Source: Amphiscolops sp. MND2022 (Eukaryota). From it: a DNA stretch of 64,000 bases. Below, one piece after another: positions 7,871 to 27,000 of the stretch (position 1 is the stretch's first letter; each line of letters starts with the position of its first letter). Under the pieces are notes generated by a model. The model saw only the letters and a program-made list of their open reading frames with translations, made no database searches and was not told where the DNA came from. Position numbers and translations under genes: made by a program. The stretch lies in assembly GCA_964187785.1 (NCBI GenBank), contig OZ076409.1, forward strand, positions 20,090,001-20,154,000, written 5' to 3'.

Positions 7871-8020
7871 GCCCCATGGTGCAGTGGTGAGCGAGCTGAC
7901 TGCGGTCTTGGAGGTCGGGGGTCCGATCCCCGCCAACACCAAAAATATGTGGCTACCAATACTTAAGACCCGACTAAGCTGAAAACTCAAAACATTCACT
8001 CCTCCTGTAATCTATCAAAT
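7871..8020 (+). mobile_element. tRNA-derived SINE
   Basis: A-box TGGTGCAGTGG and B-box-like GGTCCGATCCC are at tRNA spacing; the acceptor stem does not pair. Confidence 0.55.
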
Positions 8021-8239
8021 ATCATGGATTTTTGTCATCAATCAAGTGCCATGTGTATCATCATGTTAGGAGGAGAAGACACACACCGGTGGGAACCCCA
8101 TAACAGCCACTATCCCGGTAGACCAGTTACAAAAAAACAACCAGCAAACTACTCATACCAGCCACTATCGAAATCGATGTGTAGAAACAAATTTTTGAAA
8201 AAGGTGCAATGATATACAGGTTTTTTCAAAAAAACTATA

Positions 8240-9615
8240 TGTAACAAAGTTTTTCGAAAGCATCTCTGCCTCTGTCTCTCATAGATCCTAGAACACATGC
8301 CGCATTGCCGATCTGAAGAGCCATTGAAATCTGTTGCCTTTTAAAGCTGCCAACTCATTGATCGTCGTGCGAACGACAGAGCAATTTACAGAAACGCATG
8401 ATGAAATTTTCACTGCTCGCGCCTAAAAAACTATGTACTTCCAGACCACCAGCTGAAAATGTTTCCATTGTCTATTAATTCGCTTTACTTCCCAATTTCA
8501 CGCGCTTCCGCATCGATGGTTCCACAAGGAGCCTTGATTCAGGCGACTGGGTGCAAGAGCATCCACAAACGTGACATCCCACACCAGCTGTTTGACCATT
8601 TCCCAAGGAATCAAGGGGTCACCGTCTGGGCGTTTGCCATCAGTTCGGTACAGTCCACGCGGTTCGAGCCTTTGACAGAACCCAACGTCTGCTATATGAA
8701 TTAAGGGTAGCATGACGACGTGAGAAGCGACCAGCAATCTTGGTGCAATAAAGACCGTGTAAACCGTCCCGTTCATCTCTTTAACCACAGTGGCACGAAT
8801 GTGCAATACAGACGTTGGCTCCGAGACGTAAACCAATTGAAATCCGAAGCTGCTGATCATCAAGTTTCAGACATAGGTTCTTGCGAGGAACGACGTTAAG
8901 CCATTAAGACCCGAATATGACTAGAGGATCGTTATAAAAGTTTTGAACGTCGGTCATCCATTCTAGAAATCAAATTTTGGATGGATTTGATATAGACAGG
9001 TTGTTTCAATTTTTGTTGTGTTCTATCGAGAGGACTTTCTTGTCTTTGTCAATCTCAACCGTTTCTCAAATGCTCTTGTAAACGAAACATCTTCGAATCT
9101 TTCCGAGAAAATCGTCATGGGAAAGTCACTCGCACGCTGAGGTTAAATTCGCACCCATTCATAAATGGTAGGTTAATCTGTGGTGTTTTTATCAAGGGGC
9201 AAGATTCTTGGGAACTATGCTGAAACCTTCGATTGTCGCTTTTTAGTGATGTCACCAAAAAATTCGCGTTTCTTGGATCATATTTTGTGTCCCAGTGTTT
9301 TTTTTTGAGATCTTCCAAAACAGTTATGTTATTTTCACTTAAATTTCCACCGTCAAGGTACCATAAGTTTATTTTCGACTCCAAACTGTCAATCAGATCT
9401 GAATGGAATCCTAAAATGAAACTGGAGAAACAGAATCTCCTTGCTGGGTCCCATCACAAGATTTGATCACCGCATCACCGTAAAAAAACCTTGGATGACT
9501 GTACGCCGAGTGAGAATATTTGTAAAGTTCAGGGTGTTTTTCAAAAGTTTTCTCTAGCTTGAATTGTCGCGATTTATCGAATTGAAAGCGTTTTGAAAGT
9601 CAGTTTTCTGAATTA
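8240..9615 (-). mobile_element. Degenerate CRE-clade non-LTR retrotransposon (RT plus restriction-like endonuclease)
   Basis: DFQNAFNSINR, WYLDGG (degenerate YLDDG), [18 protein letters not shown]....LVWDVT..DALAPS and C-terminal QQISMALQIGNAACVLGS, with many frameshifts. Confidence 0.8.
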
Positions 9616-9639
9616 TATTTCCTATGGACTGGTGGTTTT

Positions 9640-10470
9640 CAATCATACATGTTTGTAGGCGACAGTTGTCTGCATTCCTTCTGAATCTTTGAAGAAAATT
9701 AAAAGCTGAGTTGACGTTAGTTTGTAAATTATTGAACACCAATGTTCTGTCTAGAGTCATACTGATGTTTAGATCGTTTTCCAGATTCGCCATGAAATAG
9801 GGCGACAAATTCCGTTTGGATTTGACCATTCGGATTTTATTACAAACATGTATTGAGTGAGATGAACAATAATAAGAAAAAACAATGCGTTGTTTTGACT
9901 TCTTGGAGCAACAAAGGGGAAGGCAAGATAAAATGTGATTTGTGAAATCTTCAAGAGAACCTGGTTGTTGGTTGCAGTACATTCTGTTGTAAAGAGTGTC
10001 TAAAAGCGCTTTGAATAATTCCTTGTTGAAACTGCCACGTGAAAGTTGTCGAGCAGGGTGACTGTCATTTTGTAGGTCATTAATGTCAACGAACTCGCCA
10101 AAGATTGCAAAGTGGTCCGAGTATAACAAAGACGAGGGATAAGTGTTAGAGGGTGCTGAGTTAGTGAAGATTGGTTTCAAAGAGTTTCTTGTCTTATGTG
10201 TAGGAAATTGTACCATCTGAGCAAAATCGTTTTGTTTAAAAAACGAAAAGATTGATTGTTCATAGATGGAGATATTGTCGAAGGCAGTAGTTAGGTTAAA
10301 ATCTCCTAGTACAAAATTTTCAGGCTGCTCTGAAACTGCATTCTTGCGAATTTGCTCCAAATGAAACTCAAAACAGAACAGTAATTGATCGAGAGCAATA
10401 CGATAGTCGGAATAAGTGAAGATCGCGATCGTAACTAACGTCTGAAAGTCATGCACCGTAACCAAGGTCT
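9640..10470 (-). mobile_element. CR1-type LINE ORF2 fragment (APE endonuclease and linker)
   Basis: VLGDFN, QMVQFPTH, SDH and KQRIVFSYYCSSHSIH match the intact ORF2 at 21203 (KRLSLPFYYTSHSIH). Confidence 0.8.
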
Positions 10471-10498: not shown

Positions 10499-10697
10499 TA
10501 ATGTGGGGTAATATAGGGTGTATGCACGCTCGCTCTCACCGTCGCAAAAACCAGCTGCCACTAAGATCGCTTCGCCATTCCCGTTTCCGTAGAGTCTTTA
10601 CTCCTGTTCGACCTCGCTCAGCAAGGTGGGAACATAAGCAGCCCCGAGGGGAGCGGGGCGCCGGAGGAAATGGGGGAATATCCGAGGCACGTTTTAA
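10499..10697 (+). repeat. ~200-bp multi-hairpin core repeat, copy 1
   Basis: taatgtgggg...cctgttcgacctcgct...ggaaatggggg aatatccgaggcacgtttt aligns to the reverse complement of 18441-18642. Confidence 0.9.
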
Positions 10698-11110
10698 TGT
10701 AGCAAAGAATGGGGTATTTTGAGATCCAATTCTTGTGTGATCGAAAAGTGTGATCAAAAATTGACCAAAAATTTCGCTATGGAATTGATCCGTTTTTGCT
10801 GTGTTTTTGCTCCTGCAAAGCGTTTAAAAGCGTTTGAAATACCTTAGGTACTTTTCCCTACCTAATATGGGGTCATATACGATGAATGAGGTTGCCATAA
10901 TACTGTCGATTTCCTGTGGGCACAAACTACGATTCCAGGAATTAGATCGAAACGCACTTCTGTAACTAAGATCTAAAGACTCAAGATCTAAATGTCATTT
11001 TTCGTTACTAAGATCTAGATAGTGCCAGCTCCGGAATCGTAACTAGAGTCTAAATTTTTGGGTGTTATTCCGGTTTTTGGGACGTTATTCCTTATTTACA
11101 ATTGATTTGA

Positions 11111-11402
11111 AGTAGAAAACGTGCCTTTGGTATGTCCCCACTTCCTCTAGTGCCCCGCGGCTTTTCGGGGCCGCTTATGTCCCCACATGCTATATGAGGT
11201 CGAACAGGAGCGAAGACCTAACGGGGCCGGATATCGCGAAGCGTGCATACATCGGGTTTGCGTCAATAGCTTCAAATTTTAACACGTCGAATTCCTAACG
11301 TTGATCTCCGTTCCCGCTAGGACTTTGCTCCTGGGCAACTTTATGGGAACATGAACTGCTCCAAGGGGCCGCGGGTCACTAGAGGAAGTAGGGGCATATC
11401 CC
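11111..11402. repeat. Two partial core copies in inverted orientation (11111-11255 minus, 11303-11402 plus)
   Basis: atgtccccacttcctctagtgccccgcgg on the left and ggggccgcgggtcactagaggaagtaggggcatat on the right. Confidence 0.8.
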
Positions 11403-14067
11403 ACGGCCAAAAAAAGTTATTTGAAAGCGCTAGGTATTTGAAAACGTGAAAACATTGACTCGATCTCAATTTCTTTGACCATTTTACTTCGAATTTGGTG
11501 ATAGATTGCGTATTCGCGAAATGGATTCGATCCTAACATCCACCGCCTACCAAAGGTATCTGTGAAAAGGTATATTTGGTTTTAACTTTTTAGAGGACGT
11601 TTCAGCGACATATTGTTGCCGAAACGTCTTGTTCCAACATGAAATACTTCAATAAAGGAGTAACTTAACTTTCACAAGAAGGGGAAAATTTCACGTTCCA
11701 AAGCAGAGCTTTCTCTGTGGAACCAGGAGCTGCAGGTGTCACATTGTACCCATTTATCGTTTGACCCTTCTTGCTTCTTGCATTTTTCACATTCGTAAGC
11801 ATTGGAGGCTGTTCGCAGGCGTCCTCGTGGTTTAGTCATTGACCTAGTGATGTTCCAGGGGACCAGTAACAATTAGTATCTGAAGCAATTAATAAGTTTG
11901 AGTAATGTGGACCTGATGCTTGACGTGGGATGAACGGTGTACAAAATCCCAATAAATCACATATCAATCAAACGAAACAACGAATGCATGTAGCACTCCG
12001 GTTAACATCATCAACGTTAGTCCTCTATACGGTACTCCCGAAACTTATTTGGACTTTATTCGTGGAACTAAAACATTGGACTCATTTGAAACACGTGTAA
12101 CACCTGTAGTCTTGTTTCATCTTTGAAACACCCGAAGATAGGATACGCTCGTTTTGCCAGAGCATCGATTACAGAAAAGCAACTGGCCCAGATCAAATTC
12201 CTGGAATAAGTTTCAAAAATTGTTCCAAGACCCTCAGCAAATCCATCAGCCAAATACTTTACAAAATCAAGCAGTCTGTTGTTTTCCCCTCGGTTTGGAA
12301 AATCTCGATTGTTAGTCCTGTCCACAAAAAAGGCTCAAAATCAGATGTTCTCAACTACCGAACCATGTCTCTTCTTTGCATAATCTCAAAAATCTTTGAA
12401 CGTTGTCTTTTTTATATTTGTATCCTCTCCTTGAACCGCTCTTTCATCCTGCACAATATGGTTTCCGCAAAGGTAGATCCTCAGTCCTACATTTATTGAT
12501 ATATGTTGAAATGATCTATAATGCACTCGAGTCGGGGCATTGTGAAGACGTAATATATTTTGACTACGAGAAAGCCTTTGAAAACGTGGATCACGGTTTA
12601 TTTTTGATGAAGCTCTCTAAGTTTGGCATTCATCGGAAAATACTGAAACTAATTGAATCCTATTTTACGAATCGCCAGCAGAGAATTCGCGTGAATGATC
12701 ACCTTTCATCACAAAAATAACGAGTGGAGTTCCCCAAAGCTCGATTATATCAAACTTATTTTTCCTCGTCTATATAAATGATCTACCGTCGTTATTCAAA
12801 TCTTCAATACCCCTGCTTTGCGCAGATGACGCTAAATTTATTGCAATAAAGAAACAAAAGCTCCATTTTCAGCTGGACTTGTCTCGAGTGAAAAGATGGA
12901 GTGATACGCATCAACTACCACCTAATGTCGACAATTCTTCCCTTCTTTCCTTCCATGCTAACCATGTGGAGTTCGACTTCTCTGGAGATGAAATTCGCCA
13001 AGTTACGACGCAGAAAGATCTTGGAATTTATATATCCGATGATATGAAATGGAATCATCAGATTAAGACCGCAGCAAAGAAAGCTCTCGGCGTGTTCTCC
13101 CAAACTCTCTGCTCATACTAAACTGAAAGTAAACAAGTCAATAGTTTCCCGTATTGATTTATGGGAGTACCTGTTGTTTTGAAAAGTCGAAAACACCATA
13201 TAACTCGAAGGAATTCAGAAGAAATGCTTAAAAGCCGATCTGACAGTTAGACCTAACAGTTAGATCTAATTCCATTAGACCCAAGCATTTAGATCAATGG
13301 CGTACACCCCAAACTGCACCAGCAATAGCAACTACAAAGTGCTACTACAACAAAGCCGACTTCTTCCACTTTCACTTTATTTGCAATTACAAAATATTTT
13401 AATGCTGTCAAAGATGCCCAGTGGATACTTTGTCTTCGATCCATCCTCTAGAGGCCCCGAGAGCACTGCGAACATCCGGTGATATCCAATTCGAACACGG
13501 AAAAAGGATGCTTCAACTAAGTGAACAAAGTTTCTTCTACCGAACAACTGCCTGGGTAAAGTAAATGGTCACTTGGCTTAATGCCATTTGGCTTAAAGTC
13601 ATTGGGCTTAATATAGTTGGTCACTTGGCTTAATTTTTTTAAGCTAAGTGTCTCGGGTATTGGTCACTTGGCTTAAAGTCATTTGATTTAAAACCACTTA
13701 GTTGAAAAAACGTTGCAGATTTTGTCGAATTTATCTTTATAACGTAGTCGGCGTATTATTATAACGTCATATCAAGTACCCCTCGCATATGTCCCCATTT
13801 CCTCTAGTGCCCTGCGGCCTCTTGGGGCCGCTTATATTCCCGTCTTGCTAAGCGAGGCCGAACAGGAGCAAAGACCTAGCGGAAACGGAGATCGCGAAGC
13901 GATCGTAGTGGGAGCTGGTCTTTGCGACGGTGAGGGCGAGCATGGATTCACCGCATATGCCCCACATTATGTTATTTCAGGGAGTTGACATATTTATTCC
14001 TTGAGTTGGAATGGAGTTGGCTTAATTTTGTGGTCACTTGGCTTAAAATTCTTAAACCAAATGACTC

Positions 14068-14300
14068 TATTAGGGCCTGGGCTCCTTCTGGTCGTAGCTG
14101 GGTTGTCGGAAGATTGGTGAAGAGTGGTTATTGTCAATACTTTATTTTGTGTTGTGAGTTGATAAAGTGATTCAGTCAAGTGAAGATAAAATAACCGGTA
14201 CATGTTTACAAACAACAATAATATACTAAATTAGTTCAGTCTGGTATAGTCTGAGATGGTTGACCTTTAATGGTCCTTTGACCTTCATCGATCTCTAACA
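14068..14300 (-). repeat. Copia 3' LTR
   Basis: Near-identical to 19255-19486 and adjacent to the PPT. Confidence 0.95.
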
Positions 14301-17300
14301 CCCCCGCTCGATGAGAGACTCCGAGGGTTGTTGTTTGATGATGGCGAACCACTGTGCTTGACCATCTGTCGTGTCAAGGCAGCGGTTGAGAGGGCTCTAT
14401 CCATCAGTTGAAAAGAAGCTGAAAGTCGTCATAGTCCAAGTGATAACATAAATACTATAATGAGAAATGTAAAATAATTGAGTTGTGAGGGAGGCAAGGG
14501 TTAAATTGTTGATTGGGGTGGCTGAATGACGAAGAGTAGCGATGAGAGCTCATTGAAGGCAGGCTTGGGTAGGTTCTTGGTGAAGATATCAGCCAAGTTG
14601 TTTTTTGTGGAGACATAAGACAGTTGAATGCGTTTGTCCTCAACCAGTTGACGGATGAAGTGGTGTCGGGTTTCTATGTGTTTAGCACGTTTTGGGCGAC
14701 AGGGTTGCTGGCCAGTGCGAGTGCCCCTTGATTGTCACCACACAACAGAACAGGCGTGTCCACCGTCATCAAACAGAAGAATGTGAGCAAGCCTTGCAAA
14801 TAGACTGCTTCCTGTGCAGCCAAAGCCAACGAAACATACTCGGCTTCGCAAGAGCTAAGTGCCACACACCCTTGCTTTTTGGACGCCCAAGAGACAACAC
14901 TACCAGAACGACTTAGTTTGAAGCAAAAACCCGAAGTTGACTTGCGATCGTCCTTGTCGGAATCCGAAAAACCAAAAAGTTCGAGATTTTCAGAGCGGTT
15001 ATACACAAGAGATAGAGACTCGGTGCCCTTGAGAAAACGGAGAAGGTGTTTCAATGCACACCAATGGGCTTTACCAGGATTTGACACGAATTGTGCTAAG
15101 TTATAGACAGCAAAGCAAATATCGGGGCGACTAACAACGGACAAATACATCAAGTTTCCAACTAAGCTACGATATTGTTTCTGTTCACAAATATCAAGTG
15201 AATTGTCACTACCTTCGATAGGGCAGTCCAATTTTGACTGTTTCGTATGGGGAATAGCTGGAGTACTGACTGGTTTACAATCAGACATATTACTTTTGCG
15301 CAAAAGGTCCTTTATATAGGACCGCTGACTAAGAGAAATGCGACCGCGTGACTGTTCAACATTGCATCCCAAAAACCAAGTCATTTTCCCACGATCATCG
15401 ATGCTGAATGCATCGCTGAGTTCCGCCTTGAAATCATGCAGCATTTTGTCGTTGTTTGAAAAGTACAAAATGTCGTCGACCCAAACTAGTACAAATAGTT
15501 GGGAACCATTAGTCCCATCGCAACGAAAAAGACAATGATCCTCGGCAGACTGTACAAATTCGTTCTTCAAAAACCACTGGGTTAAAGTTTTGTTCCATTC
15601 CCTCCCTGCTTGCTTTAAACCATAAAGGCATTTTTGAAGCTTGCAACAAAGTGTTTCACCATTAGCCCCCGCTTGCGCGAAGCCTTCTGGTTGTTCTATA
15701 TAAATTTCATCACTCAAGTTCGCATTGAGGAAGGTTGAACGGACGTCTAACTGAAAAACAAAAGTCGACCAAGAAGCAGCGAGCGCGAAACAAATCCTCA
15801 AGGTACAAAGTTTGGCAGTAGGCGCAAAAGTTTCATCGTAATCGTTCCCAAAAACTTGCGAAAACCCTTGGGCTACGAAACGAGCTTTGAATTTTTCAAT
15901 AGTTCCGTCGTCGTGTCGCTTAATTTTGAAAACCCACCGGCTTCCAATTGCTTTTCGGCCTGGGGGAAGCGGAGAAAGCACCCAGGTTTTGTTCTCAATA
16001 AGCGCATCGTACTCTATTTGAGTAGCTTCGATCTATTCGCTTTTAACCGATGACTTCATTGCTTCACGATAAGTTAGATTCTCATCGCTGTCATCCGTTA
16101 AAAGAACGTAGTCGTCTAGATACGCAGGCGGTTTGATAACTCTCGCACTACGAAACCGCAAAAAAGCACTACTTTCATTGGCATCATTGTTTTCAGATGA
16201 AACAACATCAACGGGGAAAGGAATCGTTTCAGTTTCGAAATCATTCAATGTTTCAGTCGGTAAAATAGGAACTGAAGACTTTTCGCAAAAATGTTTCTGT
16301 GTTTCAGTCAGAACTTGTTTCGGTGCCGGTTTTTTTGGTTACAAATGCTCGGATGTTTTGACTTGTGTGCGCAGCAAAAAAGTCGAAAGAAGTCTCATCA
16401 AAGGAGACGTTGCGAGAAAACGAAGTCTTTTTAGAATAAGGATTGTTCAAAATGTATGCTTCGGAATCCTCAGAATAACCAACGAAAACTTCTTTGGTGG
16501 CTTTATCGGAAAGTTTGTCTTGATGCGTTTCAATGTGTTTGAAAGCAGTACATCCAAAAACTTTCAAGTTGGGAAGATCTGGTTTTTTACCAAAAAACAT
16601 TTCTAAGGGCGTTTTACCTTTTGGTAAACTAACTGTGAGGCAACGATTTGAAATTTAAAAAGCAGTGTGTAAGGCCCGAACCCAGAATTCATTGCCGAGT
16701 TTTGCTGTTTTTAGCATGCAGCAAGCCATTTCAACTGTTGTTCGCCAGCGACGTTCACTCACACCATTTTGATGAGGCGAATAAGGGGCAGTATGCTCTC
16801 GTTTGATTCGGATTGATATACAAAAACTTCGAAAAGACTTGGAAATGTACTCTTTCCCATTATCAGAACGGATTGCTCTGGGCGTTCCGACTTGCGCACA
16901 AAAAACTTTGAATTTATCTAGGCACTCCTCTTTCAATTTGAGGAAATATACCGCTGAGTACCTGCTGTAGCTGTCCGTAAAAGAAATAGCGTATCGATTG
17001 CCACCAAGCGAAGTAGTTGGCATCGGTCCCAAAATGTCAGTGAAGACGAGATCAAGTTTCGAAGATTTTCGTTTCTACTTTTTTCGCGATACTGGTTGCC
17101 GTCGTGACTTAGAAATTTTGCAAACTTCACAACAACAAAGTTTATCAAAAGCACTGTGTTTCAAGCTCATCCCCGAAACATGATGAGCCAAACGTTTCAC
17201 ATTTTTGAAATTGTTGTGACCACAACACCGCTTCTTCGTTTTCGCCGGAAAAAGAGCAAAAATCAAATGTCTTTCCTTTCAAAACGTAAAGATTAGCGTG

Positions 17301-18284
17301 CTCTTCAAAAGGAATAGTTGCTCTTTCATTGACAAAAATGCTCAGAGACTTTCCGAAATTCACTTGAGCCCCGTTTTGTCTCAACTTGCTAACGCTGATC
17401 AAGTTATGAGAATGATCAGGAAGAAAAAGACAGTCGGAAAATGTCACACAGCGTTCGTCCCTTCTTTGTCCAAAAGTAAAAGAGAAACTTTTCCAACACC
17501 CTCAACTTGCGAAAAAGTCCCATTCGCATTTTTTACTTTGCGTTGTGTTTCTTCGCTAAAGTCGAACAACAGGGAACGGTCAAAAAACATATGCGAGGAA
17601 GCACCAGAGTCGATGACCAAAGTGTGCTCCTTCACCTCGCATTTTTGGCTAGTGAGTGCAGTCTCACTACCATCGCAAAAGAAAACTAAGTCCTCAGCTA
17701 GGTTTGACTCTCCTGTCTCAGCACTTGACTTAGGGTTCAAAAGAGGGTTTTTCTTGAAACATTTATTCTCTTCATGGCCAAAACGCCTGCAAAAGTTACA
17801 CTGGGATACTCTACAAATGGCTTGTTTATGTCCATTTTTACCGCAACGCCTACACTTTCCATTGAATTTTTCAGGTTTACGCGCGGAACTTTTCGCAAGA
17901 GTTCCTTTGGATAACAAGGCAACATTTTCATTGCTAGCTGTCGCAGTTTGTAGGTTACGAGAACTTTCTAAATTTTTTAATGCTTTTTTTACTTCCGCAA
18001 AAGACGCCTTATCTTTCGAAAAATCGTGCACAGTTTTGAAATAGTCATATTCGGAAGGCAAACCCTGAAGAACTATCGAAGTTAACATGTTTTCAGAAAC
18101 TTTCTCACCAGCGAGCTCCAACTGCTTACTCACATACTCCGCTCGAGTCAGGTAGTCAACCATGCTCTCCGTGGGCTCCTCGGTGTTTCGGTGCTGTTGA
18201 AGTGGTCCTGCAGTAGTTGCCATGCCTTCGGACCATCACCTTTGCAGTCGTTCGTCAGCATCAGGATACTGCGGCTGTCAAGAC

Positions 18285-18794
18285 GGGAACAAGACGTTTC
18301 GGCACAAGACGTTTCGGCAACAAGATGGCGGAAGACGTTTCGGCAACAAAATGTTGCCGAAACGTCTTTCACCTGCTGTGAAGACGTTTCGGCACCAAAG
18401 ACGTTTCGGCAACAAGAAGAATAATCTGTAGTTTTCTTTAGTATGAAACGTGCCCCATATATGTCCCCATTTCCTCTAGTGCCCCGCGGCCCCTTGGGGC
18501 CGCTTATATTCCCATCTTGCTAAGCGAGGTCGAACAGGAGCAAAGACCTAGCGGAAACGGAGATCGCGAAGCGATCGTAGTGGGAGCTGGTCTTTGCGAC
18601 GGTGAGGGCGAGCGTGCATACACCGAATATGCCCCCACATTAGAAGAGGAAAGTACTGAAAATTTGTTGCCGAAACGTCTTTCACCTGCTGTGAAGACGT
18701 TTCGGCACCAAAGACGTTTCGGCAACAAAAAGTTGCCGAAACGTCTTCCGCCATCTTGTTGCCGAAACGTCTTGTGCCGAAACGTCCGGAACCC
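18285..18794. mobile_element. Foldback element A (aagacgtttcggcaac inverted arrays) with core copy 18441-18642, inserted in Copia gag
   Basis: 8-bp TSD gtcaagac (18277-18284, 18795-18802) and long near-perfect terminal inverted repeats (TIRs). Removing the element restores gag LVQCLD|SRSIL. Confidence 0.92.
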
Positions 18795-19254
18795 GTCAAG
18801 ACACTGTACCAAGTACGCCCAAATTTCGTACTTCTTGTCATTCGTGCCAGCATCTGTTCCATTCAGCACGTTCAGGAGCTTCTTCGTGAAACAGAACCCC
18901 TCGAATCGCTCCTGCCACACAGCGAAGTCTTCTTCCTTGCCAGAGAACTGGAGATACTGCAAAGGTCGATCCATCCCTCACAAACTCCAACAAAAGCCCG
19001 AAGCAGGCAGAAAGAAGTAACTGAAACAAAAATGAGGGGAGCAAAACAGGGATTCCCACGAAGATAAGCTACAAAGTTAGCGAAAGCGAAACAGCGGTAA
19101 CGGACGGCATAAATAGCAAAAATTGTGGATATCCGAGACGCGAAAAGGAAAAATGGAGAGCGAAAAATAAGATCAGACGAGCATAGTCAAAGTAAGCAGA
19201 AAAAGGTTTTTTTAAGGAAAAAGGCAAACTCACCAAATTGCTGGGTCCCTAACC

Positions 19255-19486
19255 TTTAGGGCCTGGGCTCCTTCTGGTCGTAGCTGGGTTGTCGGAAGAT
19301 TGGTGAAGAGTGGTTATTGTCAATACTTTATTTTGTGTTGTGAGTTGATAAAGTGATTCAGTCAAGTGAAGATAAAATAACAGGTACATGTTTACAAACA
19401 ACAATAATATACTAAATTAGTTCAGTCTGGTATAGTCTGAGATGGTTGACCTTTAATGGTCCTTTGACCTTCATCGATCTCTAACA
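19255..19486 (-). repeat. Copia 5' LTR
   Basis: Starts TGTTAG on the minus strand and is followed by the PBS. Confidence 0.95.
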
Positions 19487-20380
19487 GACTCGACGAAAAA
19501 ATTAAGCCAAATGGTATTAAGCCAAGTGACTGGTAACCCTGGGTAAATCGTTTGCCCAGAGATGTCCAATTTGACGAACCTTTTGGCCTCAAACAACGCT
19601 TCCTAAAACACCTGTGGGCTCACTTCGACAGCTGTTACAATGAAATTGTCCGCTCAACATGAAGAATTTAATTTGGAACCACGAAATGTGAAAGGGAGAA
19701 TATCCCTGTACCACTCAACGACTAGTCATGTTCATACTACTTCTACGACTACTACTAAAAATATTACAACCTGCACTTTTTCTCGAAAAATAATACTCAC
19801 GGGTTATAGACGAAAATTCGATTTCAAATTCATCCAATCAGTTTGCAGTATAAACTAATATTCTGTTCGAGACAATTTTTCGTTTTCTGCTGTTCGTAAC
19901 TTTGGCTGTTTAGGAATTGCCCTTAAAATCAATTTTCGATACCTCCTTTTTTGCAACCAGGGGTGTGTATTTTCACCCACACCCCCCCCCCCCCAACATG
20001 ATGACGGCGGGCGGGAATAACGTCTAAGGAATAACGTCTAAATTTAAAACGGGAATAACGTCTAAATTTAAATCATTTTTCAGGAATAACGTCTAAAGTT
20101 TTGGACGTTATTCCCGTTTTTTTAGACGTTATTCCCGTTTTTTAGACGTTATTCCTGTTTTGAAAGTTGAACTTTCTGAAATCAAAAAAAATAAATTTCT
20201 GAATATTTTCACAACAAATGGCCGGCACAAAAATGGGTCCTGGCAAGTGTATCATTGTCTACGGTACCCTTAATTCGAACAACAACAATTCATAGTTATT
20301 TATTTTTCCCACTTAATGTGGGGGCGTTTTCGGTGTAGCCTAATTGTTGTGATAAACTTATTAAATAGTTTCCGGTTGTG

Positions 20381-21193
20381 ATGCCTCCAAAAAGACAGAC
20401 GAAGCAGACAAACAGCAAAAGTGCAACTACTGACCTCCTACCCTGTGCAAAAGAAACGTGTGGAAAATGTGATGTGGAGGTAGTTGACGGGGATTCAGCC
20501 CTGGCCTGTGAACAATGCCTCAGGTACTTCCACGGGGTCTGCTTGGGCGTAAACAATGCTGTGGTGACGGCAATGGGGAATCTCCCTGGGTGCTACTGGT
20601 TCTGTGAAGAGTGTGATGGACCTCAGCGGGCTCGTGTGGATCTGCCAAAGGAAACTGAAAAGCTAAGTAAAATGGTTTCTCATTTGAATACATTAGTAGC
20701 AAAGATTCCTCCTCTTGAGATACCAAAAACTCCTGATTCATCGACTGCTAAAATAATGAATGTAATGACTGACGATTATAAATGTCAAGTACGTATCTCT
20801 GGCATTGAAGAAACTCCTGAAAACACTGCATCAAAACAGATGATTAAAGATCAAGTTCAAATTGAAGAAGTCCTTGAGAAAATTGACTGTTCCTTCCCGA
20901 TCAAAGGTGTAAGACGAATGGGCCGCTATTACCCAGGACGCAAACGGAAAGTTTTAATAACATTCCAATCACCATGGGAAGCACGGCTGGTCATTGCCAA
21001 AGCGATTGAAAATAACCTCTTCCAGGAACACAAAGTACTGATTACTCCTGGGCTTTCCAAAGAAGACGCATTGCGCGAGAAAACGCTCCTGCAAAAGAGA
21101 TATGATATGATACAGAATGGCACTGATTCAAAAACTTTGAAAATTAGAAAACTTAAACTCTACCAAAATGGCAAGGAGGTTCAAATTGAATGA
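20381..21193 (+). CDS. CR1-type LINE ORF1 (PHD finger plus C-terminal domain)
   Basis: PHD pattern CGKC..ALACEQCLRYFHGVC..YWFCEEC, then VRISGIEE and RRMGRY..RKVLITF. It lies directly upstream of APE-RT. Confidence 0.9.
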   Translation: MPPKRQTKQTNSKSATTDLLPCAKETCGKCDVEVVDGDSALACEQCLRYFHGVCLGVNNAVVTAMGNLPGCYWFCEECDGPQRARVDLPKETEKLSKMVSHLNTLVAKIPPLEIPKTPDSSTAKIMNVMTDDYKCQVRISGIEETPENTASKQMIKDQVQIEEVLEKIDCSFPIKGVRRMGRYYPGRKRKVLITFQSPWEARLVIAKAIENNLFQEHKVLITPGLSKEDALREKTLLQKRYDMIQNGTDSKTLKIRKLKLYQNGKEVQIE

Positions 21194-21202
21194 CTCACAA
21201 AG

Positions 21203-24013
21203 TTGGAAGAAAAAGTTTCTAAAATTCTCTACTTGAATGTGCAAGGTCTCTTATCGTTCCAAAAATGTATTGATTTACAAAAGCTTTATCTGACTGGTTC
21301 ATATGATTTGATGCTGTTATGCGAAACCTGGTTTGACGAAAATGTTGAATCGATTATATTTCCTAATGACATCCCAACAGTCCTGAATCGAGCGGATCGG
21401 AAGGATGGTTCACATGGTGGTGTGGTGATATGTTCGAATACTTTGGATACATCTCCGGTCAAAACAAATTTCGACTTCGGTTGCGCTGTTATTTTCCAGA
21501 ACTGCTTGGTGATAGTTATTTATAATCCTCCCCTGACCAGCAAATACCGGATAATGGATAAACATCTCCTCAATTTTATTAAATCGGTTATTTGCAAAGC
21601 TTTTTGGTCGGTCGAGAAAAATATCTTAGTGTTAGGCGATTTCAATATCCCTTCGATTAATTGGGCACTCTTTCCCGCTCAAATTCCCGAGGAGTACTCC
21701 GAAGTTTTCAATTTCTTCATTCACAATGGCTTTGATCAATTAATTCATCAAACGACCCATGACGGAGGCAATATTCTAGACCTTTGTTTTGCAAACTTTG
21801 ACATTCAATCAATCTCTGTGTCGGGAAAAAATTTCCAATCTGACCACTTCGGAATAACTATTATTCTAGAAACTTTTCATCTTAAAAAGTGGGAAATGCC
21901 TCAATCCAACTCAACCTTCTCCCTTACTCCAGATGCGGTGGAAAACATAAAGCTTGACCTATCTGACAATATATTTTCAATGGTACAGCCAAATTCCGAA
22001 TCTACTTATAGCCAGAATTGGTTCGATAATTTCGACGAAATTCTGAAGAAACACATGAGAAAGAAACGTCAAAAGCGTTTGAGTCTACCGTTCTATTACA
22101 CTTCGCATTCGATTCACCTTTATAATCAATTGAAAACCCTTGCGTCTTCAACGAAAAATTACAACATATCAAAATTTATGTCAGTGAAAAAAGACCTCTT
22201 GGAGTCTATTGAGTTGGATATCCATTGTTTTGTTAACCATTTTGTTAGTAACAACACGAGAATGCATGACTGTTATAATCTAGTCAGATCTTTCAAAAAT
22301 TCTTCGTCCTATCCCTCAAAAATGACATGGGAGAAAAAGAATTTCTCTGGTAAACCTGATATTGCCAATGCTTTCAACGACTTTTTCTTTTGCCAATATC
22401 AAGAATGTTCAACTATCAAAAATTTCAACAACTTCGATGAATTAGAATTGAATGATGTTGAAATCACTCTAGATGAAGTGTACTCAGTTCTAAACTGTTG
22501 CACGAATGGAACTGGACCGGATGGTCTTTCTGGGTTTCTACTGCGACAGATTTCCAACGAATTTAGCATTCATTTTCTTAAATTGGCAGAACACATTCTC
22601 AGTACATCAATTTTCCCGGCAAACTGGAAAACAACTTTCATTAGACCAATGCACAAAAAGAAATGTAAAACGGTAATCGAAAATTACAGACCTGTAGCAT
22701 CTTTATCCCGTCTTTCAATTTGTTTTGAACGGCTCCTTTTTAAAAAACTTTATCCCCACTGCTCAAAAAAGATATCCCATTTACAGCATGGGTTCATGAA
22801 AAGCAAATCGATACAATCCCAATTGTTAATTCACTTAGATTACATATACAACAACCTTGACAGAGGAGATGAAGTTTTCACAGTTTATCTTGATTTCAGC
22901 AAAGCGTTTGATCGTGTTGATCATGAGATTTTATTGAAAAAGGTTGCCAGTTTTGGGATTGGTGGCAATATACTCAAACTCTTGAAAAGTTATCTCGAAG
23001 ATCGTGAACAACGAGTTAAAATTGACGACTGTCTCTCAACTGCCCTTCCAATCAAAAGTGGTGTCCCCCAAGGCTCGGTTATTGGACCTTTATTATTTTT
23101 AATCTTCATTAATGATTTGCCTGGTGTTTGTGTCGACTCAATAATGTTACTCTTTGCAGACGATTCGAAAATCTCAAATGCTGATCCCATTGAACTCCAG
23201 AATGATCTTATAAGGATTTATAACTGGGCGAAAGCAAATAAAATGGAATTCAATAACACGAAAACTGAACTACTATGGTTTACTCTTCATCGCTATAAAA
23301 TTTCTGATAGACGTGTATTGGTCTTTGATTCTAAAGATATTGAGTTTTCTACGGTCCCTATTAAAGATTTGGGTATCAATTTTACGTCTGATTTGAAATG
23401 GTCAGCCCACATCGATGTTCGTATTAGAAAAGCTTTTTCACGATTCATGATGTTAAAGCGGTCCTTACCGACTACCTTACCGGCTAATGTAAAATCACAA
23501 GTTTACAAACTTTATATCCTACCAATAATCACCTATGGATCAGTCCTATGGTTTCCCAACAAGACTGATATATCGAAATTAGAAGTCTTTCAAAATAAAG
23601 TTATTCGTTGGTTTGGACTTATAGATGATTATAAGGATCGGTTATTAGCCCTAAATTTGCTTCCCTTTTCTCTGCTGTTTCAGTTGAACGACCTCCTATT
23701 CCTACATCAATGTATTGTGAACGATTCTCCGATATGTTCAGGACTGCTCTACAAAGAATCTCTCCGCCATTATGACACCCGATTTTCATCACGAAAACTT
23801 CTCTTTAAAAAGAAAACAAGACTGAAGTCCACTGACAGCTTTTTCATAAACAGAGTTGTTAATCTAGCTAATTTCGTATCATCGAAATTCGAGATTGACT
23901 TCTTTGACACGACCTCATTTAAGCCTAAACTGAAAAATATTTTTCGAAACTACCTTAAATATGGCTATGATAAATCGGATTGTAGAAGGTTTTTGAAGTG
24001 CTATTGCTGTTGA
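21203..24013 (+). CDS. CR1-type LINE ORF2 (APE endonuclease plus reverse transcriptase), uninterrupted 936 codons
   Basis: APE motifs NVQGL, LCETW, LGDFN, LDL and SDH; RT motifs GPDG, NYRPVA, QHGF, LDFSKAFD, GVPQGS and FADD. The 3' UTR has a hairpin tctac-agaaaa-gtaga and a short cta tail to 24096. The start codon is uncertain. Confidence 0.95.
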   Translation: MEEKVSKILYLNVQGLLSFQKCIDLQKLYLTGSYDLMLLCETWFDENVESIIFPNDIPTVLNRADRKDGSHGGVVICSNTLDTSPVKTNFDFGCAVIFQNCLVIVIYNPPLTSKYRIMDKHLLNFIKSVICKAFWSVEKNILVLGDFNIPSINWALFPAQIPEEYSEVFNFFIHNGFDQLIHQTTHDGGNILDLCFANFDIQSISVSGKNFQSDHFGITIILETFHLKKWEMPQSNSTFSLTPDAVENIKLDLSDNIFSMVQPNSESTYSQNWFDNFDEILKKHMRKKRQKRLSLPFYYTSHSIHLYNQLKTLASSTKNYNISKFMSVKKDLLESIELDIHCFVNHFVSNNTRMHDCYNLVRSFKNSSSYPSKMTWEKKNFSGKPDIANAFNDFFFCQYQECSTIKNFNNFDELELNDVEITLDEVYSVLNCCTNGTGPDGLSGFLLRQISNEFSIHFLKLAEHILSTSIFPANWKTTFIRPMHKKKCKTVIENYRPVASLSRLSICFERLLFKKLYPHCSKKISHLQHGFMKSKSIQSQLLIHLDYIYNNLDRGDEVFTVYLDFSKAFDRVDHEILLKKVASFGIGGNILKLLKSYLEDREQRVKIDDCLSTALPIKSGVPQGSVIGPLLFLIFINDLPGVCVDSIMLLFADDSKISNADPIELQNDLIRIYNWAKANKMEFNNTKTELLWFTLHRYKISDRRVLVFDSKDIEFSTVPIKDLGINFTSDLKWSAHIDVRIRKAFSRFMMLKRSLPTTLPANVKSQVYKLYILPIITYGSVLWFPNKTDISKLEVFQNKVIRWFGLIDDYKDRLLALNLLPFSLLFQLNDLLFLHQCIVNDSPICSGLLYKESLRHYDTRFSSRKLLFKKKTRLKSTDSFFINRVVNLANFVSSKFEIDFFDTTSFKPKLKNIFRNYLKYGYDKSDCRRFLKCYCC

Positions 24014-27000
24014 TTTTTGTTTCTTATATTTTCAATCATAAATAATCAGGCTGTTTAATATCTACAGAAAAGTAGAATTTAAGTCTTTTACTACTACCTG
24101 TTCGACCTCGCTTAGCAAGATGGGAACATAAGCGGCCCCAAGGGGCCGCGGGGCACTAGAGGAAATGGGGACATATCCGAGACATGTTTTATACTTTGAA
24201 TCACTTCATAGCATCAGATCTTAATTGACCTGAATTTTTTCAAATTTAGACGCTATTCCCGTTTTTCGGACGTATTTCGACAAATTTTCTGTATTTTAGT
24301 CGTTTTTCTGTAATTAAGACGTTATTCCCGTTTTCAGGTTTAGACGTTATTCCTCTTTTTAGACGTTATTCCTCTGTTTAGACGTTGTTCCCGTTTTTTT
24401 AGACGTTATTCCCTAATATTTCAATTTAGATGTTATTCCTTTAGACGTTATTCCCGGTGGACCTTTAGACGTTATTCCTTAGACGTTATTCCCTCCTCTA
24501 CATGATGACACTCATGGTACTTGATTGATGAAGATCCATGGTATCTGATAGATTTTTGATACCCCGTGTGCGTTATAACTGTCAAGAGAACATATAGCCT
24601 TTTGATTGAATCGAAAAGTTTTAGAATTCGTAAATGACAACAACGAAGGCTTGTAATAGTAAATCGCGACGACGAGGTGAGAAATTGTCGAGTGAGGAGC
24701 TTACCAACACTCTGGCACAGATACCCGATAGTGTGTATTGGAAGTCTCTGTTCAGCTGGCGCCAGGATTTTGAAAGCAAGAAAAGCAGTTTCGAGAAATG
24801 TAATTCTCTGTGTTGATTGTTCCTTGACATATCCGTATCTCTTCAGTAATCTTTTGACGCGGCCTTCCTCTTTTTGCGTCTCCACGCCCCTCCGGTTCGG
24901 CCTTCGTCAGAAACGGCTGCTTGTCAAGCCTTTACTCCTGCATTCTGAGTACTAGGGGTATGAATATAAATGGCAAATATAATCGCATATAAATGGCAAA
25001 CTTTCAGCGTGACGAGAATGCATGAAGCTGTATACATATTGTCCTTTTCATCTCACTTGTTCTACTTATGTTTTCGTTTTTGCATAGTCTGTTATCTGTT
25101 TTTGCGACTCTCTATTCTCTGATACCTTTTTAGTGCAAAGCGAATTGGATCAAAAGTTTGGTAACATAATCCTGGATTGTGGAAACCGGAAATGTGATGG
25201 TACTACCAGCGCTCGCAGCTTTGAGGAAGTTGGAACTTTGGACCAAAGCATCTCTTTGAAATCAGTTGTTCAAAGTACAAGTGATTCGCTGAAAAAAGTA
25301 GATCATCACGTCAAGAAAATTGTGCCTATTTTCGCTCGCGAGAAACCTCATCTCAAAGCAAAGCGTTCTCAACAAACTGGGGATCAACGCTGGCATCATG
25401 AAGATCATTCGTTTGGAGATAGCGGCTATTATCGCTCAGATCGACATAGTATAGAGAATTGACGCTTTTCCATCGAATTTTAGAAAGCTAACATGTTGAA
25501 GTTTTTAAAAACTTGGCTGAGTAAAGCAATTTTCAAACGAGACGATAAATGCTAATCAGCTCATTTAGTAAGTCTGTCAATTGTCTAATGAGGTGTTGAC
25601 GGTGGATATCATTGCACTGACAACAAGTACGAAGATCCTGCAATAGTGCAAAAATGGATTTCGGATTCGCCTCCAGTTTTTACAGCCACTGGCGATTCAC
25701 AATTTCGGTACAAAGAGCCTCTTGGTACATATAACACGACCGCGCCCTTAATTGATTACTTACCCGCGAAATATATAGCAAGAAAAGACTGTCATCGCAG
25801 TGTCTTTGCCAATGTGACAGCAATTCATCACGCCATGTGTCCTTACGCCACGCATCAGTTACTGATATCCATCACTCATTTGTCGCTGGAGTTTCTTTAG
25901 AGGTGCTTGAAAGTTAGTGAGTTATGAAAGTGATGGATTTCGGTTGAAAGGCTACAGAAACCATCACCTCAATCGCCGATGCCTCTTCAAAGTAGTAGAA
26001 AAAACATTACCTCTGGATGTCCTTTTCAACATCAAAAAGGTCCCAATGTAGGTAAGCCTTTATTCAGTTGTGTCCGATCGAGCGTGATACCAAGACTGTT
26101 CATCTAGAATCTCCGAATCTTTGTTTCCAGACAATCGGCCTAGTCTCCGTACGCGCAGTCAAAGTGCACATGGAAGCTACTTAGAGCTGGAAATGAAGGT
26201 TGCGTATCAATACTCTTACATAGTTCAAGGACTAATTTAGTTCGACTATGTACTGCTTTAATCTTTCCCGTTCTACATTGACCTTTTCTTTTTTTTAGCT
26301 TCTATATTTTCCCATATTACCCGTTTTAAACTGTGGTTACAGCGTGTTTTTTGTTAACTCTGTATGAGCCCGACTATAATTCAGACTTTTTAAAGCTCTT
26401 GCCAACTGACACTTTCAGTGTCTTCACCGGAAAGTAAGAAAAATGGTTTCATTTCATATATTTGTGTGTGTGAAATTTTGAAGAAAAATCCGGACGTCTT
26501 TGATTTAAATTTTTGGATGACCGTATTCTGAGCTCAAATGCAATTTTTTGGAATGGCATTTTGACACCGCTATTAGCCGAGGATAAAATTACACTTCTTT
26601 GGTTTTTCATTTTCCCCGCAGAACGATCTTCGTTCAATATTATGATATTTTTCATTAAAACGAATCCAATTAGTGGTGCTCTGTGTCTTTTTAAAATGGT
26701 AGAATGCATGACTAAGATGAGATGAGTTCAACATAAAAATCGTTCAAGAAACGTCATCAAAAGTGCAAAGCAGAAGATTCGGACAGACTTTCGAATACAT
26801 CGGTGTATGATCAAAGACCGTGTACCCCATATGCAGAAGAAAACGTGGAGCCCCCTGTTGAGCCCGCTAACAGACTTTACTCGTTGCGAAACCCTACTTG
26901 TCATAAGCATACACAGATAATGAAATCTCCCTTCATTGCCCCTGACCACAGTTTCAGCCCTAAGATAAACAAAGGCGTGCCTAGAACAAATCAGAAGAAT

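Follow-up and report, generated by a model that had tools for sequence, protein, structure and literature searches.

Every long interspersed nuclear element (LINE) must regenerate its 5′ end, and the ways known rely either on an internal promoter or on transcription of the element together with a fixed target. The present report concerns a LINE in a stretch of 64,000 nucleotides from Amphiscolops sp. MND2022 (assembly GCA_964187785.1, contig OZ076409.1, positions 20,090,001 to 20,154,000 of the forward strand; hereafter the window, to which all coordinates refer), which opens with a published spliced leader (SL) and sits within the core of a foldback DNA transposon (Table 1). With regard to the nesting of one element in another, Tx1C composites and Pack-MULEs (MULE, Mutator-like element) are comparable cases. 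In Xenopus, the LINE Tx1 is found, as here, inside a non-autonomous DNA transposon, Tx1D (PMC4494074). A tie between the SL and retrotransposons without long terminal repeats (non-LTR) is known from CRE/SLACS/CZAR and NeSL, which insert into SL genes and, in the parts of the literature cited here, are described as having just one open reading frame (ORF) and a restriction-like endonuclease (PMC3636483). In dinoflagellate retrogenes, an SL written into the 5′ end of the DNA marks the reverse transcription of a trans-spliced RNA, and an AG within the leader can later serve as an acceptor (PMC5585692, PMC3942190).

The locus described here differs from each of these systems. Compared with CRE and NeSL, the element carries an apurinic/apyrimidinic endonuclease (APE), the flanks 5′ of the leader vary (the core of a miniature inverted-repeat transposable element, MITE, in one case and unrelated DNA in others), and no SL intron adjoins it. 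Compared with the dinoflagellate retrogenes, it is here the autonomous retrotransposon itself that bears the tag, in an animal host, and the only internal AG lies at the 3′ end of the leader. Compared with Tx1/Tx1D, Tx1C and the Pack-MULEs, there is no sign, among the contig pieces listed, either of targeting or of repeated composite copies. Taken together, the data indicate that a LINE headed by the SL probably landed once in the core by target-primed reverse transcription, with the loss of 80 bp, and that its family is likely to copy itself from RNA onto which the leader has been trans-spliced.

A spliced leader at the 5′ end of the LINE

The first 31 nt of the LINE are identical, at 31 of 31 positions, to the SL published for the acoel Symsagittifera roscoffensis (PMC9911081 and its bioRxiv version), and the match was recognized through a full-text literature search with 18 letters of the leader, which led to the genome report of that species. 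Judged by its leader, the host would be S. roscoffensis or a relative that shares this sequence. In S. roscoffensis, for which a genome and RNA-seq are published, 30.2% of the genes are given as trans-spliced in the part of the report cited (PMC9911081). The leader occurs once in the window, against a chance expectation of 0.00, and no fragment of it of at least 12 nt is present elsewhere in the window. Since it is followed by TTTCC, and not by GT, it is not an SL RNA gene; from its end, 12 nt lead to the ATG of an ORF1 that is complete after the junction. The only AG within the 31 nt is formed by the last two bases (a second AG arises with the upstream A at 20337), and a junction at precisely this AG is, we infer, more readily explained by splicing than by template switching. 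The initial annotation had recorded a leader of about 43 bp at this place: its presence is borne out, its nature had been missed, as 31 of the 43 bases are the published SL, with 12 nt between it and the ATG.

Other copies of the LINE and the two junctions

Contigs of four of the twelve runs listed (X1 to X4) were aligned to positions 19700–24800, and the listing compared comprises 28 of the 275 pieces, 22 of the 69 loose ends and 40 of the 225 differences; X2 to X4 have no depth over 24146–24316 and the outer flanks are thinly covered in all runs, and these holes were not used as evidence. X1 record 1 matches 20336–21075 with 0 differences (740 bp) and is preceded by 281 unrelated letters, and X2 record 6 matches 20337–20400 with 3 differences, behind 40 other letters. 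Thus all three copies seen with a 5′ flank, that of the window included, start at the leader and have three different flanks, and the leader stands at the head of copies from the ~100% as well as the ~95% subfamily. At the 3′ end, the five listed pieces that reach the tail all stop there (at 24094, 24096, 24096, 24096 and 24097) and none enters the core; the one that stops at 24097 has 14 further letters that do not fit, on a side inferred from the record coordinates. Intact cores without a LINE are also present: from 24097, where they start, X1 records 3 and 4 extend upstream into an intact core middle, with 27 of 30 letters matching the segment that is missing here, and three full LINE-free cores lie in the window. 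Neither of the two LINE/core junctions has a second copy among the pieces listed from the four runs, and none of these bridges 24096/24097.

Because other copies have unrelated flanks and stop at the tail, and because intact LINE-free cores exist, a one-off nested insertion is the most likely explanation, which agrees with the simplest of the three readings offered by the initial annotation, that a CR1 element had inserted into the core with a target deletion. For such a one-off event it had been anticipated that other copies would have unrelated flanks, end at the tail and carry a longer 5′ untranslated region (UTR). The flanks and the ends are as anticipated; the longer 5′ UTR is not found: the start that the other copies share with this one coincides with the 5′ end of the SL, which accounts for it.

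According to a second of those readings, the whole 4.5-kb unit would be a composite similar to a Pack-MULE or to Tx1C, which spreads as one DNA transposon with a working reverse transcriptase. Both arms and the target-site duplication (TSD) are indeed intact, so that a transposase acting in trans could in principle move this copy, but the TSD is explained by the insertion of the empty shell itself, the X1 copy is identical over 740 bp and has another flank, and the listed copies break at both junctions; with no second copy of either junction among the pieces listed, the composite is very unlikely. Even less credible is the third reading, that the ends of the core are the ends of the LINE and that the short cores are its non-autonomous partners, i.e. 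short interspersed nuclear elements. A resemblance of ~10 nt between the tail and the core middle is all that speaks for it; the 5′ end of the LINE is an SL, contigs end at the ACT tail, and X1 record 1 and X2 record 6 contradict it. Furthermore, the cores sit in DNA-transposon shells with TSDs of 8–10 bp, and they contain no tRNA by ARAGORN and no Rfam family above the gathering score.

A preference of the LINE for the core, comparable to that of Xenopus Tx1 for the non-autonomous transposon Tx1D, has a precedent (PMC4494074) and would be consistent with a weak resemblance of the last 16 nt of the LINE to 14 nt of the intact core just 5′ of the break. Scores as good are reached by 3.5% of the 14-mers of the window when two of the cores are used, by 0.3% with a third and by 14% with a fourth. 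However, 18 of 380 14-mers inside the core score equally well, both of the other copies with a visible 5′ flank (a small sample of two) lie outside the core, no listed tail piece enters it, and both the window and X1 have intact cores, so targeting appears improbable.

The family to which the LINE belongs is, judged from its sequences, young and multicopy. There are 106 members in the cluster of ORF2 proteins; of the 15 listed, 6 have a length of 924 aa and 99.4–99.7% identity to that of the window, none being identical to it, and a subfamily at 92–94% is present too. In metagenome contigs searched for copies of the LINE only 7 distant loci (27–38%) were found, and none in GTDB genomes and viral contigs.

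Several points weigh against the nested insertion of a leader-headed family as set out above. The 32nd base of the published leader is A and the window has T. Only two other LINE copies, both on contigs, were seen with leader and flank; X1 record 1 has a depth of 2.3 (X1 depth 2–3), and X1 may be the window’s own sample. Outside the pieces listed there might be a contig that bridges a junction, or a copy that has an outron of its own, and contig ends can also stem from low coverage. Finally, the loose ends before 20336–20338 in X2, X3 and X4 (7, 3 and 3 contigs, respectively) may be contigs that share the leader only and are not copies of the LINE.

In the leader bin the depth of X2, X3 and X4 is 2036, 267 and 1540, compared with about 44, 12 and 32–42 in the body of the LINE (contig depth, which is not copy number), and the sequences to either side vary. 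Other leader-bearing contigs of X1 to X4 likewise have TA or A ahead of the published leader, and this TA or A matches the core as well; at 20336–20337 it may represent the genuine start of the leader and, at the same time, a 2-nt microhomology at the 5′ junction. Among the loose ends of X2 behind 20379, 3 contigs have in common the leader and the greater part of the 12-nt UTR, after which another sequence follows that begins with ATG (agreement 0.71); they may come from a further family of elements headed in the same way. In X3, one contig (depth 2.1) joins 20369 to 20336 and carries the leader twice, at a distance of 23 letters, which resembles the stacked leader relics in dinoflagellate retrogenes.

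Proposed regeneration of the 5′ end

The presence of the exact leader, up to its AG, at the 5′ end of copies with different flanks points to trans-spliced RNA as the template, and full-length copies are most likely made from such RNA. The leader would be trans-spliced onto the LINE RNA at a point 12 nt upstream of the AUG of ORF1, and complete reverse transcription would then write it into DNA. In the next cycle the terminal AG of the integrated leader may act as the acceptor, and the transcript of any upstream promoter would restore the same 5′ end; since the only internal AG is at the 3′ end of the leader, re-splicing there would leave no relic.

On this basis, it is tentatively proposed that this may be a promoter-independent animal LINE, which would borrow transcription at its landing site, use the integrated leader as the acceptor in each cycle, and produce an ORF1–ORF2 fusion by UGA readthrough (see below). 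Close to an even chance is given to a different account of the same nested insertion, which needs no self-restoring cycle: either the leader-headed copies are processed offspring of a master copy that possesses a promoter and an outron, or a single capture of the leader has made it the LINE’s own 5′ sequence. The Cer1 element of Caenorhabditis elegans, for example, has its own promoter and makes SL1 trans-spliced RNA (PMC3315495), and for the leader relics of dinoflagellate retrogenes a role as promoters has been proposed (PMC5585692). By contrast, no loose end (22 of 69 listed) is found before 20369, where an outron would join, and a master copy has to be reconciled with a leader that stands on both subfamilies and at the start of every copy seen with its 5′ flank. 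The self-restoring acceptor cycle and the master copy or single capture are of about equal weight.

Coding capacity and translation of ORF2

By its anatomy the LINE can be placed in the CR1/L2 lineage of the Jockey group, i.e. among the APE-type non-LTR elements; as PHD-bearing ORF1 is found in both the CR1 and the L2 lineages (PMC4120745), any assignment to the CR1 clade proper would be tentative. Like the members of these lineages described in the cited parts of the literature (PMC4120745; PMC4316615), it has two ORFs with a PHD finger in ORF1 and an APE and a reverse transcriptase in ORF2, a short tandem-repeat tail, a small stem and no TSD of its own; unlike them, it has a 5′ end made of an SL and 12 nt of its own UTR, and its ORFs are in frame across a single UGA. 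The PHD finger of ORF1 matches PF00628 with E 6.1e-5 and 23.4 bits, just under the Pfam cut-off of 24, and homologues of ORF1 match PF27108 (PHD_Pygo). ORF2 contains Exo_endo_phos_2 (E 2.9e-9) followed by RVT_1 (E 9.8e-30), its motifs ETW, GDFN, SDH, PQGS and FADD are all intact, and its nearest solved protein is L1 ORF2p. The earlier statements that both ORFs are intact and that no TSD of the LINE itself is visible at the locus hold. The hairpin and cta tail attributed to the 3′ end fare unequally, in that the tail is present as 2.3 ACT repeats and the hairpin is weak, with a 5-bp stem and a folding of the 3′ UTR no better than that of shuffled sequences (z 0.26). Decayed LINE remnants with 26–44% identity to ORF2 are found in the window at 9581–10447 (–) and 12176–13097 (+).

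ORF1 and ORF2 share one frame and are separated by a single TGA followed by C, and the first in-frame ATG of ORF2 (21311, codon 40) lies after the first endonuclease strand with its conserved Asn. The ORF1 stop aligns with W in the protein P0167 and in P0144, P0146 and P0137 of a sister family (38% identity in ORF1, 43% in ORF2), 15 codons before the conserved endonuclease Asn. In the sister family, the gene calls give 3 proteins as fusions that have W at the aligned codon and Gln next after it; 4 others are given as starting just behind this codon. P0132 reads the stop of ORF2 as W, hence the collection includes gene calls in which TGA is W and the W at the sister junctions is probably TGA. 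The W at the junction had also been considered as a natural fusion of ORF1 and ORF2; this was set aside, since P0132 reads the ORF2 stop as W. The TGA=W calls (P0132, P0167, P0144, P0146 and P0137) appear to give false ORF1–ORF2 fusions and C-terminal extensions.

In some retroviruses a gag-pol fusion is made by UGA readthrough, which is a parallel for an ORF1–ORF2 fusion. The same junction codon in the sister family and the lack of an AUG before the first endonuclease strand suggest that the ORF2 protein would be made by readthrough of UGA-C, as the simplest reading of its translation, the rival being AUG-less reinitiation; reinitiation is used by SART1 and L1 (PMC5972666). Readthrough of the ORF1 stop has been proposed, as the cited part of that report has it, for the Paramecium LINE Group 3 (PMC5405496), in which ORF1 and ORF2 are in the same frame too; here, however, clade and host are different, and the junction is UGA-C, shared with a sister family at 38–43% identity. 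Two observations count against readthrough: TGG, and not TGA, may be the codon behind the W of the sister junction, and no stimulatory structure was detected after the UGA (folding z +1.28). A search for longer relatives of ORF1 gave none, yet P0144 is one, so this blank is uninformative.

The foldback shell and its core

Non-autonomous transposons of the MULE/foldback type have long inverted arms of tandem units and a TSD of 9–11 bp. The shell around the LINE fits these features, with inverted arms of tandem units and a TSD of 10 bp (a second core-bearing shell also has a TSD of 10 bp, a third one of 8 bp), and its outer inverted repeat is 57 nt long with 89% identity. In the same search for an exact 10-mer pair, 10 of 20000 random position pairs matched. 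A paralogous empty site is present in the window, to which both flanks align and in which the motif is in single copy, therefore the 10-bp repeat is a true TSD, and the description of the shell as a TSD-bounded inverted array is confirmed. In an Rfam scan the palindromic arms gave only sub-threshold miRNA-like matches. Most likely, the shell is a non-autonomous DNA transposon of ~0.8 kb, unrelated to the LINE, that happened to be the target.

Table 1. Features of the LINE, of the shell that contains it and of related cores in the window.
Feature	Position	Strand	Basis or remark
Left TSD of foldback shell, 10 bp, ACATGATGAC	19996..20005	.	exact match to right copy
Left arm, foldback MITE, 308 bp	20006..20313	.	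14-bp units, 4 reverse + 3 forward (20014–20155), and spacer
Core 5′ piece, 24 bp of shared ~200-bp core	20314..20337	+	22/24 identical to core 18440–18642 (–)
Spliced leader, 31 nt, ends in AG	20338..20368	+	first 31 of 32 nt printed in PMC9911081
LINE 5′ UTR, 12 nt	20369..20380	+	joined without a break to SL and ORF1 (X1 record 1, X2 record 6)
ORF1, 270 aa, N-terminal PHD finger	20381..21193	+	Pfam, homologues
Single in-frame TGA, then C; candidate readthrough site	21191..21193	+	ORF1 and ORF2 share one frame
ORF2 frame, 939 codons, APE and reverse transcriptase	21194..24013	+	Pfam, intact motifs
LINE 3′ UTR	24014..24096	+	5-bp stem 24061–24076; short ACT-repeat tail 24090–24096
Core 3′ piece, 99 bp, GC-rich hairpin	24097..24195	+	92.9% over 99 nt vs core 18440–18642
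Right arm, foldback MITE, 304 bp	24196..24499	.	10 forward 14-bp units (24246–24492)
Right TSD of foldback shell, 10 bp, ACATGATGAC	24500..24509	.	exact match to left copy
Paralogous empty site of shell insertion point	8009..8092	-	both flanks align; TSD motif single copy
Reference intact core, 203 bp, no LINE	18440..18642	-	inside shell with different repeat unit
Further full LINE-free cores	about 13775–13969; about 10499–10697		beside different repeat units
Partial cores (n=2)	11100–11208; 11343–11401		beside different repeat units

The two core pieces that had been reported around the LINE, of 24 and about 100 bp, are both recovered. The middle of the core is missing as had been stated; the loss amounts to 80 bp in comparison with the reference core, and not to about 78 bp, or to 82 bp if the last 2 nt of the 5′ piece (TA, 20336–20337), which are assignable to the core or to the LINE, belong to the LINE, and X1 record 1 also begins at 20336. 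Inside the ~200-bp core are a GC-rich hairpin and three subrepeats, and the shells that carry this core represent at least three different repeat units and TSDs of two lengths. One core-bearing shell, with a 10-bp TSD (13551–13560, 19538–19547), holds a copia-type element whose repeats end at 14300 and 19486, with 104 bp exactly identical, and inside the latter lies another core-bearing shell with an 8-bp TSD (18277–18284, 18795–18802), giving three-level nesting at 13551–19547. With copia inside a shell and a shell inside copia, nesting is therefore ordinary in this window.

Implications

A literature search, made largely without subscription papers and Repbase notes, found no published report of an SL-capped autonomous LINE in an animal. 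A practical consequence of the present locus is that matches to the leader in this genome include retrocopies and not only SL RNA genes. More generally, a young, multicopy LINE family headed by the leader points to trans-splicing as a third solution to the problem of the 5′ end, and, if the self-restoring acceptor is true, the family would be freed from the need for an internal promoter.

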